This document shows positions 11,361-61,530 of a stretch of 64,000 nucleotides of DNA, piece by piece. Made by a program: the position numbers and the translations under genes. Below the pieces are notes generated by a model that saw only the letters and a program-made list of their open reading frames with translations, searched no databases and had not been told where the DNA came from. The DNA comes from Patescibacteria group bacterium (GTDB lineage: Bacteria > Patescibacteriota > JAQUNI01). The stretch is from assembly GCA_028717685.1 (NCBI GenBank), contig JAQUNI010000001.1:399451-463450 (forward strand), read 5' to 3'. The first letter of the stretch is position 1, and every line of letters starts with the position of its first letter.

Positions 11361-11388
11361 TATAGAATCAAAATCAAATCAAAATTGA

Positions 11389-11489
11389 CCCCGTTAGAAA
11401 CATACCCCGCAGCTTGGCTAGCGGTTAACGTAGAAATATAGATAACTCGTGCGGTTGGGTTTCATGCCCCGCGCGAGTTTCTAACGGGG
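11389..11489 (+). other. long-loop hairpin with conserved arms CCCCGTTAGAAAC ... GTTTCTAACGGGG abutting a promoter -35
   Basis: 13-nt perfect inverted arms enclose a 75-nt GC-containing insert. The same arm sequence forms short hairpins at 32377-32408 and 60965-60996. Confidence 0.5.
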
Positions 11490-11518
11490 TTGACAAAAAA
11501 TTTTTGTAATGTTATATA
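11490..11518 (+). promoter_or_regulatory. sigma70-type promoter TTGACA-17-TATATA
   Basis: TTGACA at 11490-11495 and TATATA at 11513-11518. It drives ORF 11572-11913, which has a GGAGG SD. Confidence 0.65.
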
Positions 11519-13641: not shown

Positions 13642-15195
13642 TTAAGTAAAGTGCTTCTGCACTCTGCTTAATACCTCTTGGTATAAACATTGCGGGATAG
13701 ACTTGCCATCCTTGGGCGGACAATGGCAGTTGAACATCCCGTGACGGGCATAATTTTCACTTCTGTGCCAGATATCCGCTAAAGATTCTTTGCGGACATC
13801 CTCACTGAATACAGTTACGTCATCGCCAGGGCAGCGCAGAACAATCCCACGCGAAGTGATATACATTCCGCAGGCAACCTGGTTGCAGGGGTGACCGCCA
13901 GCGTAAGCGGAAACCCCATTCTCTGAAAGTTCTTTAAGCGTATTTACACCCTTTTCAATATTATAAATATTGATCCGGGTATACAGTGCGATGAGCTCTT
14001 CTTCCCGCGGCGTAAGGTCTTTCCACGATTCCCGCGCTCTACCCGCGCACATAGAAACAGTAGTTACGGGGTAGATATTGCGCTCCCGAGCAAAGACATA
14101 AATGTCATAAATTTCGTGAATATTCTGCTTAGTGATTGGAACAATGGCAAGGCACAGCCTTGTTGGCTGACCCTGATTAAATCCGGCTTCTGCTAGAAGT
14201 TCTAGAGCGCGGTTGCGCTTTTCAGTATAACCTTGAACGCCGACCATTTCATCTTGCAAAGCTGGATCAAAGGAATTAAAGCCGACATTAAGACTCACAC
14301 CCAGATCCTTGATGACACTGACCAACTCCCGAGCAGAAAGATTGAAATATTTATTGGCTAGCGCGTCATCGCCTAAGACATGGGCTTTCGTAAAAATATT
14401 GACCTTAATGCCTAAACTTTTTAATTGTTCCAAAAAAATTAGAAAATACTTATCCTCAAAAGGCTCGCCGGCACCTAAAATCTTAATGCTTTCTAAACCA
14501 AGTTCTTGGGCCTGACTATTAATCAAATATAATATCTCTATAGGCAGTAAACAAGGATTTGAACTACGGTTTACAGCGCCATTGCGCCGGAAACAATGAG
14601 GACAATTTAAGGAACAATACTCGCCGAAATCAAGATCCAGAGTGAGTAATTTGCCGGTATTTTGCGCAAGATATTCTTTACTAAAACTCCAGCCATCCAC
14701 ATCATTAACAAAGTTATTTGGCACCTGCTCTTTGCCGGGGCAAATAGGATTGATTTGATGGGGAAAAATGGACCTGCGTTTAGAGAAATCATTTTGCGTA
14801 AGGGCTGAACTTATCGCAATAATTATTTGCTTGGTGTTATCCTTATTTTTGCGCGGAATATCGGGTAAATTAACGCCTTCTTGCTCACTCTCATAGCGAT
14901 CAGAAAGATTAGTAGCCCTGTTCCGATCAAGCCAAGTAAAACCGTCAGGAATCGCACCTTTGCAGGTCAAGATAAAATTCTTGTCATCCACTTTGGTCAG
15001 TTCAACTTCAATATTGGTTTCATAACCTTTTTCACTTAGGACGTGTAAAATCGTGGGTCCGGTTTGGAAACCATAACCATAAATCAAAAACTGAACAGCA
15101 GAAGTGTTATAGCCGGCAAAAAGCGGCATTACCAGATTGATTGTTAAACACACGATAGCCGCCAAAATAAACCAAAAATTTCTTTTCATTTTCAA
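13642..15195 (-). CDS. radical SAM protein with C-terminal Cys-rich (SPASM/twitch-like) region and N-terminal hydrophobic anchor; paralog 1
   Basis: CSLNCPHCF (CxxxCxxC) motif and G-rich SAM-binding GAGEPF. C-terminal region HPCNQVACG...CPG...CHC...C. The N-terminus MKMKRNFWFILAAIVCLTINLV looks like a signal anchor. SD AAGGAGGT. Confidence 0.85.
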   Translation of the reverse strand: MKMKRNFWFILAAIVCLTINLVMPLFAGYNTSAVQFLIYGYGFQTGPTILHVLSEKGYETNIEVELTKVDDKNFILTCKGAIPDGFTWLDRNRATNLSDRYESEQEGVNLPDIPRKNKDNTKQIIIAISSALTQNDFSKRRSIFPHQINPICPGKEQVPNNFVNDVDGWSFSKEYLAQNTGKLLTLDLDFGEYCSLNCPHCFRRNGAVNRSSNPCLLPIEILYLINSQAQELGLESIKILGAGEPFEDKYFLIFLEQLKSLGIKVNIFTKAHVLGDDALANKYFNLSARELVSVIKDLGVSLNVGFNSFDPALQDEMVGVQGYTEKRNRALELLAEAGFNQGQPTRLCLAIVPITKQNIHEIYDIYVFARERNIYPVTTVSMCAGRARESWKDLTPREEELIALYTRINIYNIEKGVNTLKELSENGVSAYAGGHPCNQVACGMYITSRGIVLRCPGDDVTVFSEDVRKESLADIWHRSENYARHGMFNCHCPPKDGKSIPQCLYQEVLSRVQKHFT

Positions 15196-21339: not shown

Positions 21340-21458
21340 AACAAGTTCAAAATTCAAAGTTCCCGCCTGCCATCACCTGCTGGCGAAGCCAATGGCGGGC
21401 AGGCAAAATTCAAAGTTACAATTTCATTTACAATCAACTTTAAACTTTGCACTTTGAA
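21340..21458. repeat. AT-rich palindromic element, family E (word CAAAGTTCAAAGTGCAAAG) with GC-rich core GCCTGCCAT...ATGGCGGGCAGGC
   Basis: Related copies at 25812-25980 and 63178-63268. Confidence 0.7.
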
Positions 21459-33263: not shown

Positions 33264-33299
33264 CAAAAACCCCTCTGAAAAACAGAGGTGGTTTTTGTG
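33264..33299. terminator. bidirectional intrinsic terminator
   Basis: AAAAAC-CCCTCTG-AAAAA-CAGAGGTGG-TTTTTGTG. It serves the plus-strand response regulator and the minus-strand tRNA-Gly/element transcript. Confidence 0.7.
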
Positions 33300-33318
33300 A
33301 TATACAGTTTTTCGGATT

Positions 33319-33388
33319 GGAGCGGGTGAAGGGAGTCGTCCTGTCATACGACAGGACGCCCCGTCGAATGACGGGGCGAACCCATACC
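33319..33388 (-). ncRNA. unidentified tandem-hairpin RNA element (paralog 1) between tRNA-Gly and terminator
   Basis: Two abutting perfect 7-9-bp hairpins (CGCCCCGTC-ATTC-GACGGGGCG; TCCTGTC-GTAT-GACAGGA), flanked by GGGTTC ... CACCCGCTCC. A paralog sits downstream of tRNA-Pro (34348-34414). Its identity is unknown. Confidence 0.4.
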
Positions 33389-33413
33389 TAGCGGGTCCGC
33401 CGTACGAATTTTG

Positions 33414-33484
33414 AGCGGGATACCAGATTCGAACTGGCTTCTCCACCTTGGAAGGGTGGCATACTACCATTGTACTAATCCCGC
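33414..33484 (-). tRNA. tRNA-Gly (anticodon UCC)
   Basis: Minus-strand cloverleaf GCGGGAT-TA-GTAC-AATGGTA-GTAT-G-CCACC-CTTCCAA-GGTGG-AGAA-GCCAG-TTCGAAT-CTGGT-ATCCCGC-T. Confidence 0.85.
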
Positions 33485-33589
33485 ACTTCGCAAGCCCTGG
33501 GCTTGCTCAGTGTAAACTCTTTTGCAAAAAATTGAAAATGAAAAATGCAAAACTACAGTTAAGAAATTGTATTTTTTCGTGCTGTCTTT

Positions 33590-34315
33590 TTAAGTTCTAA
33601 ACATATTTTTAATAAATTCAACTTCGTCGCGTGAGAATTGAAGATTCTTTGGTCGGATATCTCCCTCAATAACAATCGGGCATTTTAAGGAAAATATGGG
33701 CTCTATAGAGGACAAAAAATTTTTAGTGACAATCCTAATGGACTGGTGGTCGCGCTTTCTGTAGGTGCCGCTAAAGTGAATTTGCGAGATTCTATTTTTG
33801 AAGGCATTAACCAGCTTGCCGGTTTCATCCTTGGACCAAAGATAAGCGTGGGCGACATCAAGGCAAAGATTAACTTTGGGATATTTTTTAAAAATTTTTC
33901 GGAAGTCAGCAATGGTGATATTTTTCTTTTTAGCTAAGTTTTCAGTGGACACTTTGAACGGAAACATATTTAAGATGCGGGGCGCGGGCAAATCTTGAGG
34001 ATGGATAATCACGTTTTTGGCGTTAATTCTAGTATATAGTGCGGAAATAATTTTTAATTGCCTAATTACTTCCTGTTCATTATCCGCATCGCGGCTCAAA
34101 TGAAAAGGGGCGTGAATAGTCACATAATTCAACTTTGTGAGCCACTTCTCGTTGGCGGCAGAGAACTTTGAGGCATACAACTCTTCTTTAGAGGAAAAAG
34201 TAATCTCAATACCATCAACTTTAAGATTCTTCATATATGACAATAAGCCATTGCGATCTTTAGAATCCTTCCAGCTCCAAAAATTGCCTGACGCGAAACT
34301 AATTATTCTGGACAT
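33590..34315 (-). CDS. sugar phosphate isomerase/epimerase-like TIM-barrel protein (xylose isomerase-like fold)
   Basis: Pattern GIEI...IHAP...E......IIHP...DVAHAYLW typical of the AP-endonuclease-2/xylose-isomerase-like TIM family. No obvious SD, so the start is uncertain. Confidence 0.55.
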   Translation of the reverse strand: MSRIISFASGNFWSWKDSKDRNGLLSYMKNLKVDGIEITFSSKEELYASKFSAANEKWLTKLNYVTIHAPFHLSRDADNEQEVIRQLKIISALYTRINAKNVIIHPQDLPAPRILNMFPFKVSTENLAKKKNITIADFRKIFKKYPKVNLCLDVAHAYLWSKDETGKLVNAFKNRISQIHFSGTYRKRDHQSIRIVTKNFLSSIEPIFSLKCPIVIEGDIRPKNLQFSRDEVEFIKNMFRT

Positions 34316-34347
34316 AATTTTGAAAAAATGGTTTATCTAATCTTGCC

Positions 34348-34414
34348 GGAGCGGTGGGATTTGCCCTATCATTCGATGGGGCACCCTGTTGAATAACAGG
34401 GTGAACCCAAATAC
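34348..34414 (-). ncRNA. unidentified tandem-hairpin RNA element (paralog 2) downstream of tRNA-Pro
   Basis: CACCCTGTT-ATTC-AACAGGGTG and CCCCATC-GAAT-GATAGGG hairpins, with the same GGGTTC ... CCACCGCTCC flanks as 33319-33388. Confidence 0.4.
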
Positions 34415-34453
34415 AATTATTCCTTTCTTCAATAATAATGAGAACATCTTTTG

Positions 34454-34526
34454 TCGGGGATGTGAGATTTGAACTCACGACCTCCTGCTCCCAAAGCAGG
34501 CGCGCTAGCCACTACGCTAATCCCCG
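34454..34526 (-). tRNA. tRNA-Pro (anticodon UGG)
   Basis: Minus-strand cloverleaf CGGGGAT-TA-GCGT-AGTGGCTA-GCGC-G-CCTGC-TTTGGGA-GCAGG-AGGTC-GTGAG-TTCAAAT-CTCAC-ATCCCCG-A. Position 37 is G. Confidence 0.85.
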
Positions 34527-58329: not shown

Positions 58330-58640
58330 GGAGAAATGAAAAGTGAAACCCCCTAAATCCCCTTTATCAGGGGGATTTTAATTTCTTCCTTCTGTGACCC
58401 ACGCGCTCTAGGAGAGAGTTGTTGGCTCCATAGTGGCGTTAGCCCTATGGAGTCAGGATGCAAGCCGTAAAGAAAAAATATGATCAGACTTTAATGCTGT
58501 TTCGCATTGCGGCTCCACAGCCTGCCCGCCATCGCTTGCGCTTCAGGCGTTAGCGGGCGGGCCCCTCGCTTCGCTCGGGGACTATGGAGCCAACAGACCC
58601 CCTCCAACTCCCCCTTGGTAAGGGGGAGTGAAATCAAGCC
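58330..58640. repeat. composite GC-rich repeat island with 14-nt outer inverted arms GTTGGCTCCATAGT / ACTATGGAGCCAAC enclosing about 146 nt
   Basis: Arms at 58421-58434 and 58581-58594. Inner modules CCTGCCCGCCATCGCTTGCGCTTCAGGCGTTAGCGGGCGGGC. Flanked by hairpins CCCCTTTATCAGGGGG and CTCCCCCTTGGTAAGGGGGAG. Confidence 0.7.
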
Positions 58641-61059: not shown

Positions 61060-61530
61060 TTACGCCCTGCGAATTGCCTTTACTAATAAAATCACTACTC
61101 CTGCAACAATCATTATATCCGCGACATTAAACACCGGCCAAAATGCCAAGTTCAAATAATCTATCACATAACCAAAGCGGAGGCGGTCAAGCACGTTAGA
61201 GAACGCGCCTGCTCCCAACAGCACTAAACCGCAAAGAGAGGAAAAATCTTTTTTTTGCCAAAATTTCCGCCCCCAGTAATATAAAAACACGCAAAGCAAT
61301 GCCGTAATTAAATAAAAAAACACGACAGACCACGCGCCATCGCTGGACGGGGCGGGCAGGGGAATCCCGAAAGCAATGCCGTAATTACGGTAAAATTCCA
61401 AAGAAAAAAAATGACCTAAAATAAAAAAATTGGGTCTGCCCGCGAGAACATAGCCAGCCCAATTTTTTAAAATTTGGTCTAAGATGAATAACCCTCCCGC
61501 CAGTGCAAAACACCACTTAAGTTTGCGCAT
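61060..61530 (-). CDS. lspA: lipoprotein signal peptidase (signal peptidase II)
   Basis: 4 TM segments, with conserved Asn/Asp blocks (...FNVADI...). Confidence 0.85.
   Translation of the reverse strand: MRKLKWCFALAGGLFILDQILKNWAGYVLAGRPNFFILGHFFSLEFYRNYGIAFGIPLPAPSSDGAWSVVFFYLITALLCVFLYYWGRKFWQKKDFSSLCGLVLLGAGAFSNVLDRLRFGYVIDYLNLAFWPVFNVADIMIVAGVVILLVKAIRRA

Follow-up and report, generated by a model that had tools for sequence, protein, structure and literature searches.

Two short elements, A and B, that follow tRNA genes on the minus strand of a 64-kb stretch of a Patescibacteria genome (the 722-kb contig JAQUNI010000001.1; the whole stretch is referred to here as the window) are probably the displaced 3' ends, about positions 50 to 76, of former tRNA alleles. 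Element A would derive from a tRNA-Pro and element B from a tRNA-Gly, and in both the T loop is split by a 40-bp palindrome that forms two hairpins, which we call the module. We interpret them as the "solo" 3'-type form, lacking an open reading frame (ORF), of a cassette common in bacteria of the candidate phyla radiation (CPR). The elements are selfish DNA and neither an RNA gene nor a riboregulator. We draw this conclusion because the module occurs in mixed orientation, G.U pairs make up only about 1% of its stems, the stem that would close it is not conserved, the nearest relative lacks it, and it lies at junctions of duplicated tRNA pieces, often beside a GIY-YIG gene. In the cell, the window copies probably have no dedicated role and are at most transcribed within tRNA 3' trailers, where they may have an incidental effect at the RNA level.

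Hairpin modules within tRNA remnants

An earlier note on this DNA had placed two paralogous elements on the minus strand behind tRNA-Gly and tRNA-Pro. Their coordinates hold (A, 34408..34348; B, 33383..33319), and the frame that they share, GGGTTC-N(35-65)-CCGCTCC, occurs twice in 64 kb against an expectation of 0.01. The linkage to tRNA genes was likewise borne out: the elements lie 24-45 nt behind tRNA-Gly and tRNA-Pro (A starts 38-45 nt past the end of tRNA-Pro, and B about 24-30 nt past that of tRNA-Gly), and related genomes carry paired hairpins beside tRNA genes.

Each element is composed of a short piece of tRNA, the module, and a longer piece of tRNA, all read here on the minus strand. 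In element B, the short piece is ATGGGTTC (33378..33385), which corresponds to the 5' strand of the T stem followed by TTC. The module (33338..33377) consists of hairpin 1, GCCCCGTC-ATTC-GACGGGGC (33377..33358), and hairpin 2, GTCCTGTC-GTAT-GACAGGAC (33357..33338). The remaining tRNA-Gly piece (33318..33337) runs from GACT (T-loop positions 57-60) through CCCTT (3' strand of the T stem) and CACCCGC (3' strand of the acceptor) to T, the discriminator, and CCA. In element A, TGGGTTC (34403..34409), the 3' part of the T-stem 5' strand plus T54-T55-C56, precedes a module (34363..34402) made of ACCCTGTT-ATTC-AACAGGGT (34402..34383) and GCCCCATC-GAAT-GATAGGGC (34382..34363). What follows is AAAT (T-loop positions 57-60), CCCAC (T-stem 3' strand), CGCTCCG (acceptor 3' strand), and G (34346..34362). 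In both elements, the point of insertion is exact: C56 of the T loop lies on one side of the module and R57 on the other. The description of each element as two abutting perfect hairpins was correct for B, in which both 8-bp stems are perfect; in A, this is true of the 8-bp hairpin with the ATTC loop, while the 8-bp hairpin with the GAAT loop contains a single C.A mismatch. The differences between the hairpins of A and those of B are compensatory changes.

On both strands, DNA folding of the 40-nt cores gave a pair of hairpins (for B, -19.1 and -19.1 kcal/mol; for A, -12.0 and -13.9 kcal/mol), with z scores of -5.6 to -7.3 and none of 200 shuffles folding as well. A covariance model of the module (R1), built from 82 distinct copies, recovered exactly two copies from the window: B with 64.1 bits on the minus strand (E 3e-14) and 49.7 on the plus strand, and A with 54.6 and 51.4 bits, respectively, the orientation of A being ambiguous. 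The same scan of the 64-kb window found no further copies, and none beside its tRNA-Met and tRNA-Ala genes.

The view that the elements fit no tRNA did not survive the removal of the module from the sequence, because the flanks are a T arm and the 3' strand of an acceptor stem. Specifically, GGGTTC is the end of the T stem plus T54-T55-C56, and the 3' flank provides the rest of the T loop, the 3' strand of the T stem, the acceptor 3' strand, the discriminator, and CC(A/G). A clue to this came from a syntenic relative (L001-L004; loci outside the window carry L numbers) whose TIM-barrel protein is 80% identical and whose tRNA-Pro and tRNA-Gly loci are strewn with tRNA halves. There, an uninterrupted tRNA 3' half that ends in ACGGGTTCAATTCCCGTTACCCGCTCA adjoins a 106-aa GIY-YIG ORF. 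Without its module, element B reads ATGGGTTCGACTCCCTTCACCCGCTCCA and agrees at 26 of 28 positions with a genuine tRNA-Gly(UCC) 3' end in a different CPR genome (L113) and at 25 of 28 with that of the tRNA-Gly(UCC) in L127, an identity to true tRNA 3' ends that is expected of a tRNA-derived remnant. The match to the window's own tRNA-Gly is 17 of 26, and we therefore rejected the idea that B is a plain duplicate of the 3' end of the tRNA next to it. In element A, removal of the module restores a canonical T loop, TTCAAAT; its acceptor strand, CGCTCCG, is consistent with tRNA-Pro, whose acceptor is of the C1-G72 type (CGGAGCG). At neither element was a complete tRNA found by ARAGORN or by Rfam RF00005 at up to E<=10; of the cloverleaf, the elements retain just the T arm and the 3' strand of the acceptor. 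Given that the flanks are acceptor strands, the C(C)ACCGCTCC flank common to A and B is partly a coincidence of two such strands. The C-rich 3' tail was also considered as an antisense seed, which we rejected: the tail is the acceptor strand, and GGAGCGG is not enriched in the window (10 sites versus 6.1 expected).

A module family in CPR bacteria

The module is exactly 40 nt long and consists of two 20-nt hairpin units of the form G-N5-TC-loop4-GA-N5-C. Hairpin 1 usually reads GCCCnnTC-ATTC-GAnnGGGC and hairpin 2 GnnnnnTC-GGAT/GAAT-GAnnnnnC. A scan of a genome collection that required the T-stem piece and hairpin 1 yielded 24 matches, 15 of which have a complementary hairpin 1 followed by hairpin 2 and are true copies; their hosts are Saccharibacteria, Parcubacteria, Paceibacterales, Niyogibacteria, and some metagenome-assembled genomes (MAGs) labelled Proteobacteria. 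A metagenome scan that specified hairpin bases only, with no flank, yielded at least 127 copies on at least 120 stretches. Genomes and metagenomes combined hold more than 140 copies, and a scan of viral contigs returned no matches. The same module variant was found in Paceibacterales and in Saccharibacteria, and up to four copies occur on one contig elsewhere. Three module-bearing contigs (L008, L017, and L023) are in MAGs labelled Gamma- or Proteobacteria, with GC contents of 0.42-0.59.

Among the matches listed, to which the counts in this paragraph refer, 95 of 126 unique contexts read TTC|module|RANT of a T loop. Modules outside the T loop lie in the anticodon loop or stem (CTTC|GAA, CTTC|GGA, CTCC|GAA, CTC|GG, GCC|GTT); the few nucleotides beyond the module again continue the local tRNA, and the join falls between C and G where inspected. 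The 95 T-loop modules are oriented both ways, 53 forward and 42 reverse, or about 38:42 once copies from an orientation-fixing search pattern are removed. The T stem that would close them is complete in 11 of the 95, with usually one to three pairs left. In most copies, one flank of the module comprises just 3-7 nt of tRNA, and the long flank usually matches the neighboring tRNA in isoacceptor type but comes from a different allele. A complete tRNA or transfer-messenger RNA (tmRNA) lies no more than 320 nt away in 90 of 115 unique metagenomic copies: 50 have the layout of the window (complete tRNA, 0-120 nt, element), 14 show its mirror image, with the element ahead of the complete tRNA, 25 are separated from the tRNA by a gap the size of an ORF (about 230-320 nt), and 1 overlaps a predicted tmRNA. 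Some copies encode CCA.

Related loci keep the paired hairpins by compensatory change, as a check on covariation confirmed. Across the 82 distinct modules, 97.1% of stem cells are paired and 12 of 16 pairs vary on both sides, a pattern that none of 500 shuffles matched. G.U pairs occupy about 1% of stem cells and are no commoner than other mismatches. Well-paired stems with so few G.U pairs are explained by a DNA palindrome, which must pair on both strands.

Several copies depart from the common arrangement. At the 3' end of L076, downstream of a module at about 14467-14506 (+), single hairpin units with a 25-nt period abut the full module; together with lone units in L161 and L152, this array suggests that the 20-nt hairpin is the basic unit. 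In L090 (8128-8406), four composites of T-stem piece, module, acceptor strand, and CCA stand in tandem with an 80-nt period beside a tRNA-Ala. A composite in L063 (6050-6150) follows a tmRNA gene and duplicates the T arm and acceptor end of that gene, and the module at around 381-420 of L064 overlaps a predicted tmRNA. Within the hairpin cores TCATTCGA and TCGAATGA are ATTCGA and TCGAAT, which represent the T loop's palindromic core (TTCGAA) read in one orientation and in the other; that the units were derived from T arms is speculation.

A GIY-YIG gene as partner of the module

About one-third of module copies, among the matches listed, abut an ORF of 82-106 aa whose product starts with M-(H/Y/F)-Y-V-Y-I-L. 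The ORF encodes a GIY-YIG catalytic domain (PF01541, E 2e-14) and no other domain, and its nearest solved structures are the UPF0213 proteins 1YWL and 1ZG2 (E about 5e-6 each). We rejected a phage origin, since the ORF matched no PHROG family and the scan of viral contigs had found no module.

These cassettes come in two mirror-image forms. The 5' type, seen in 16 cassettes inspected, begins with positions 1 to x of an old tRNA, followed by the module, 5-7 nt of tRNA, the GIY-YIG ORF, and a complete tRNA. The 3' type, seen in L113, L086, L098, L108, L114, and L089, begins with the complete tRNA, followed by the GIY-YIG ORF, 3-7 nt of tRNA, the module, and positions x+1 to 76 of the old tRNA. 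In all cases the ORF has the same direction as the complete tRNA and abuts it, and in the 3' type its end often lies within the module. In L013, L073, L092, L098, L119, and L135, the stop codon is the TGA of TCGAATGA/TCGGATGA or the TAG of ATTCGATAG in the module. The order in L113 is tRNA-Pro(UGG), tRNA-Gly(UCC), 11 nt, a GIY-YIG ORF, TAG-GGTTC, the module, and GACTCCCCTCACCCG, and this locus can be read as element B with its nuclease gene still present.

To avoid circularity, we also sampled the GIY-YIG family, which comprises at least 443 clusters, mostly from CPR bacteria, by protein and independently of the module. All six genes sampled in this way lie directly next to a tRNA and to a remnant of that tRNA in which hairpin units are present. 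Some of the loops at these loci are ATGC, and in two of the loci single units stand separately in the D, anticodon, and T loops. In addition, the spacer of one solo copy (L025) is the 3' end of a GIY-YIG ORF (86% identity over 49 nt). Because this spacer keeps the last ~50 nt of the ORF, solos can arise by ORF deletion. In another cassette (L082, 835-1351), an extra complete tRNA-Ser(CGA) lies between the module and the GIY-YIG gene, and so tRNA genes can travel as cargo.

Turnover of the tRNA loci among relatives

The R1 scan found no module at the syntenic loci of the relatives L001-L007. In L001-L004, these loci have a different set of tRNA halves and a GIY-YIG gene. The 5' part of the window's tRNA-Pro is orthologous to a displaced tRNA-Pro 5' half in L003, which shows that overwriting of these loci has taken place more than once and in separate lineages. 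A separate arrangement occurs in L003 (2596-2730 and 3752-3935), where the anticodon loop of a resident tRNA harbors a complete tRNA-Pro or tRNA-Gly of matching identity; it recurs in L124, about 200 nt upstream of the tRNA-Gly there. The inserts are bracketed by a CCTGCCCGCC / GGGCAGG inverted repeat, with the 5' and 3' halves of the resident tRNA remaining on either side. This junction element differs from the double hairpin.

How the cassette may spread

The most likely process, although we give it somewhat less than even odds, is that the cassette spreads into tRNA genes by nuclease-stimulated gene conversion or replacement of the tRNA gene. Under this scenario, tRNA sequence would serve as the homology for recombination, and the cassette would bring a replacement tRNA sequence, so that tRNA function survives. 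The displaced piece would stay behind as a remnant, marked and interrupted by the hairpin module. The module might be a structure recognized by the domain-only nuclease, which would then cut a few nucleotides to one side, or it might break up the target and the homology of the remnant. A cut at a fixed offset from a recognized structure would account for both the 3-7-nt piece and the conserved loops. Later deletion of the nuclease gene would leave solos such as A and B. A bolder version of this idea, which we think rather doubtful, is that tRNA and tmRNA genes of CPR bacteria are overwritten by selfish elements of a class not recognized before. The domain-only GIY-YIG nuclease, expressed by read-through from the tRNA promoter, would be guided by DNA structure in place of a DNA-binding domain, namely, by a cruciform-capable 20-bp hairpin unit with a conserved loop, usually present as a pair. 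It would cut a few nucleotides beside this unit, and gene conversion would then install a foreign tRNA allele, with the old allele left as a remnant tagged by hairpins. In keeping with a homing cassette, a displaced fragment of the target lies beside a restored complete copy. The GIY-YIG ORF that such an element should include is present in relatives and absent from the window copies, and the ORFs, at 82-106 aa, include no separate DNA-binding domain.

Several observations weigh against our interpretation. The complete tRNA beside the cassette retains an intact T loop, and a generic T-loop cutter would therefore cut its own locus along with every other tRNA gene, which gives a simple homing model a problem of immunity. 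We considered Campbell-type insertion of a small circle, synthesis-dependent strand annealing, and retargeting by T-loop microhomology as models of homing and rejected them, as none covers the constant 3-7-nt piece and self-immunity together. Likewise, the ~85-aa proteins are a catalytic domain only and lack a DNA-binding domain of the I-TevI or Seg type. The conservation of the module loops (TCATTCGA, TCGGATGA) goes far beyond what a passive scar requires, from which it follows that something reads them. The lone single hairpin units at the D, anticodon, and T loops of remnants in L161 and L152 fit a mini-element that inserts on its own no less well than they fit a fixed part of a cassette. 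With respect to the window itself, the best matches to element A are tRNA-Pro 3' ends, but at only 18 of 25 positions, and for this reason we assign A to tRNA-Pro tentatively. Searches of the 64-kb window with tblastn and a hidden Markov model (HMM) found no GIY-YIG gene of the cassette family, and the window spacers showed no significant similarity to the set of GIY-YIG ORFs and no detectable ORF remnant. It is therefore only by analogy that A and B can be called relics of an ORF-containing cassette.

Alternative explanations

The main rival to displaced tRNA ends is an independent mini-element, which we consider unlikely. The 20-nt unit or the 40-bp pair would be an autonomous-like miniature mobile element, comparable to a miniature inverted-repeat transposable element (MITE), a repetitive extragenic palindromic (REP) sequence, or a double-hairpin element (DHE), and would be moved in trans, possibly by the GIY-YIG protein. 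Its insertion sites would be TTC|R or C|G within loops of DNA that can form hairpins, such as T arms and anticodon arms, and it would survive only in tRNA copies already redundant, with the cassettes merely co-occurring as separate parasites. Such an element would explain why the module is found in both orientations and in precise, scar-free insertions without target duplication, why lone units occupy D, anticodon, and T loops (L161, L152), and why single units (L076) and composites (L090) occur in tandem. The sharing of one module variant between Paceibacterales and Saccharibacteria is also in its favor, as are tRNA remnants and GIY-YIG cassettes that are free of the module (L003, L107, L122). 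However, the module is nearly always at the edge of the remnant, with 3-7 nt of tRNA on one side, across tRNA positions and types, a pattern that independent insertions into preexisting remnants would not yield. Furthermore, no transposase-like gene is associated with the module, and hairpin units are present in the remnant at all six GIY-YIG genes that were sampled without regard to it. A MITE or an element derived from an insertion sequence was rejected specifically: insertion between C56 and R57 involves no duplication, and a 2-bp CG duplication fails where R57 is A, as in element A of the window and in L148.

The possibilities raised in the earlier note, namely, a processing signal, a small RNA, or a regulator of the downstream gene, correspond to a structured RNA cotranscribed with the tRNA, which is very unlikely. 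The RNA would be a three-way junction in which a helix like the T stem meets the two hairpins, with a single-stranded, C-rich tail at the 3' end. Its appeal lies in the location of the elements, 24-45 nt past tRNA 3' ends and ahead of a terminator (B) or a coding sequence (A), as well as in the strong covariation of the stems, the CCA encoded by some copies, and the GGG/CCC closing stem that RNAfold gives to A. Yet, in about half of the copies among the matches listed, the module is inverted relative to the tRNA and to transcription, and G.U pairs are as rare as any other mismatch. The three-way junction as a conserved RNA was rejected on these grounds: the hairpins covary, but orientation is 53:42, G.U pairs amount to about 1%, and only 11 of the 95 copies listed retain an intact closing stem. 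When folded as RNA with its flanks, B was better than its shuffles (z of -4.4) and A was not (z of -1.6). The module is also absent from the orthologous loci of the nearest relative, and tRNA remnants explain the flanks. The earlier statement that no known RNA family is present was accurate: Rfam, at gathering thresholds and at E<=10, gave only the two tRNAs, and the best matches near the elements were at chance level (18-24 bits versus gathering scores of 47-80). Nor are the elements intrinsic terminators, since the terminator scan reported 33272-33288 only and the module is followed by T-loop and acceptor sequence with no run of T.

It is hardly credible that the elements are attachment-site scars left at tRNA genes by islands or prophages of the integrase type. 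Integrases classically cross over in the T loop or the anticodon loop, and their islands typically leave the 3' end of the tRNA directly repeated, which is reminiscent of the 3'-end repeat found here beside a complete tRNA of the same kind; fragments of integrases or resolvases also occur near L154/L155 and L160. Against this, the distance from the tRNA to the repeat is 0-60 nt, or about 300 nt where a GIY-YIG gene alone intervenes, and never kilobases, no integrase is found near the window loci, and attachment repeats are not split by a conserved 40-bp palindrome. The mirrored 5' type and the remnants of different alleles fit replacement and not integration and excision. Least credible of all is an orientation-independent structural signal of benefit to the host, such as an exonuclease barrier or a site of tRNA or mRNA processing: it would suit the position between a tRNA and a coding sequence (A) or a terminator (B), the stable GC-rich hairpins on either strand, and a cassette gene that is codirectional with the tRNA and abuts it, which suggests read-through expression, but structure alone does not require conserved loops, the sites differ between close relatives, and the module is tied to tRNA remnants and not to tRNA genes in general, the tRNA-Met and tRNA-Ala of the window having none.

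Genomic setting in the window

On the minus strand, the order is tRNA-Pro(UGG), element A, a TIM-barrel coding sequence, tRNA-Gly(UCC), element B, and a bidirectional terminator. ARAGORN and Rfam identified tRNA-Pro (34453..34526; 69.9 bits) and tRNA-Gly (33413..33484; 66.3 bits) as complete, functional genes. The spacer between tRNA-Pro and element A (34410..34452) is AT rich and occupies the position of the GIY-YIG gene in ORF-containing relatives; the one between tRNA-Gly and element B spans 33386..33412. The TIM-barrel protein that had been proposed between the two loci is indeed encoded there (33590..34315, minus strand; AP_endonuc_2, xylose-isomerase-like, PF01261), and the bidirectional intrinsic terminator that closes the tRNA-Gly unit is present at 33272..33288; both are neighbors only. 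In many other CPR genomes, tRNA-Pro(UGG) and tRNA-Gly(UCC) are directly adjacent. The encoded neighbors of both loci are HU, YmdB, RNase Y, the TIM barrel, and a response regulator. The best candidates in a promoter scan of the locus matched the consensus at 9 of 12 positions only, and the elements are likely cotranscribed with the tRNAs.

Other palindromic sequences occur in the window. Downstream of tRNA-Ala (11386-11496, plus strand) lies an inverted repeat of about 17 bp, TTGACCCCGTTAGAAAC ... GTTTCTAACGGGGTTGAC, with arms ~75 nt apart. A second small palindromic element (21348-21418, plus strand) reads CCCGCCTGCCAT-(18 nt)-ATGGCGGGCAGG and is bracketed by a 14-nt direct repeat, CAAAATTCAAAGTT, that looks like a target-site duplication; its CCTGCCCGCCAT motif is also found at 58521-58532 and 61351-61360.

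Implications

Our findings have consequences for annotation, because the composites are otherwise flagged as small RNAs or tRNA pseudogenes, an error that the signature of T-loop TTC, 40-bp palindrome, RANT, and acceptor strand prevents. More generally, tRNA genes are usually seen as the most static of genes, and they appear to be repeatedly replaced by foreign alleles in the streamlined genomes of CPR bacteria, with layered tRNA remnants as a fossil record of the replacement events. The combination of a catalytic-domain-only GIY-YIG protein and a conserved hairpin offers a concrete hypothesis for how minimal nucleases may find their targets. If the bolder version of the spread described above is true, few known mobile DNA units would be as small as the 20-nt unit, and the tRNA genes of these reduced genomes would be subject to repeated horizontal replacement. 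If confirmed, the system could provide a compact, structure-guided nuclease.

Relation to known systems

We found no published account of this arrangement of tRNA, GIY-YIG gene, and module in the open-access literature, a search whose scope makes the absence no proof of novelty. No defining test places the element in the families of DHEs, homing endonuclease gene (HEG) cassettes, or REP sequences and their REPIN doublets, and the comparisons that follow are of likeness and difference. In fungal mitochondria, free-standing HEGs have partial duplications of the target gene beside them. The CPR cassette resembles these in that a GIY-YIG gene has a complete copy of a conserved gene on one side and a displaced fragment of that gene on the other, in its presence or absence among relatives, in its tRNA neighborhood, and in keeping the host gene functional. 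It differs in having only the ~85-aa UPF0213-like catalytic domain, in its putative target, the tRNA gene itself in a cellular genome, and in the conserved palindromic module at the junction. One case of such free-standing HEGs is phage T4 SegB, a GIY-YIG enzyme encoded in a tRNA gene cluster (PMC2330249).

The REP and REPIN sequences mobilized by RAYT transposases are likewise short extragenic palindromes with compensatory changes that form doublets, are nonautonomous, and are thought to be moved in trans by a single-copy protein (PMC3116915). REPINs are two inverted REPs within one long hairpin, carry a conserved GTAG, are not targeted to tRNAs, and are linked to a Y1 (HUH) transposase, whereas our module has two independent hairpins, no GTAG, a target in tRNA loops, and a GIY-YIG partner. 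The attachment sites of tyrosine integrases share with it a duplicated tRNA 3' end beside an intact tRNA and the positions in the T loop and anticodon loop; the module differs in having no integrase and no island, in splitting the remnant with a palindrome, and in its mirrored 5' version. The stand-alone GIY-YIG proteins of the UPF0213 or YhbQ-like type (1YWL, 1ZG2) are similarly single-domain proteins; what sets the CPR family apart is its association with tRNA remnants and hairpins.

In form, the module resembles the DHEs described from the mitochondria of the fungi Allomyces, Schizosaccharomyces octosporus, and S. osmophilus (PMC10085805). These are short, GC-rich units with two adjacent hairpins that occur in several dispersed copies, either in intergenic regions or inside structural RNA genes, and their presence or absence between relatives, together with near-identical copies in different species, suggests mobility (PMC10085805). 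The module likewise has two adjacent hairpins, dispersed copies, and presence or absence between relatives. It departs from DHEs in its strict palindrome of two 20-nt units, its conserved loops, its defined target (C56|R57 or other loop positions), its location at the edge of tRNA remnants, and its link to a GIY-YIG gene. The hosts also differ, a mitochondrion in one case and CPR bacteria in the other, and the comparison is one of form and not of sequence. Compared in this way, the module represents a bacterial counterpart to the unexplained double-hairpin elements of mitochondria.

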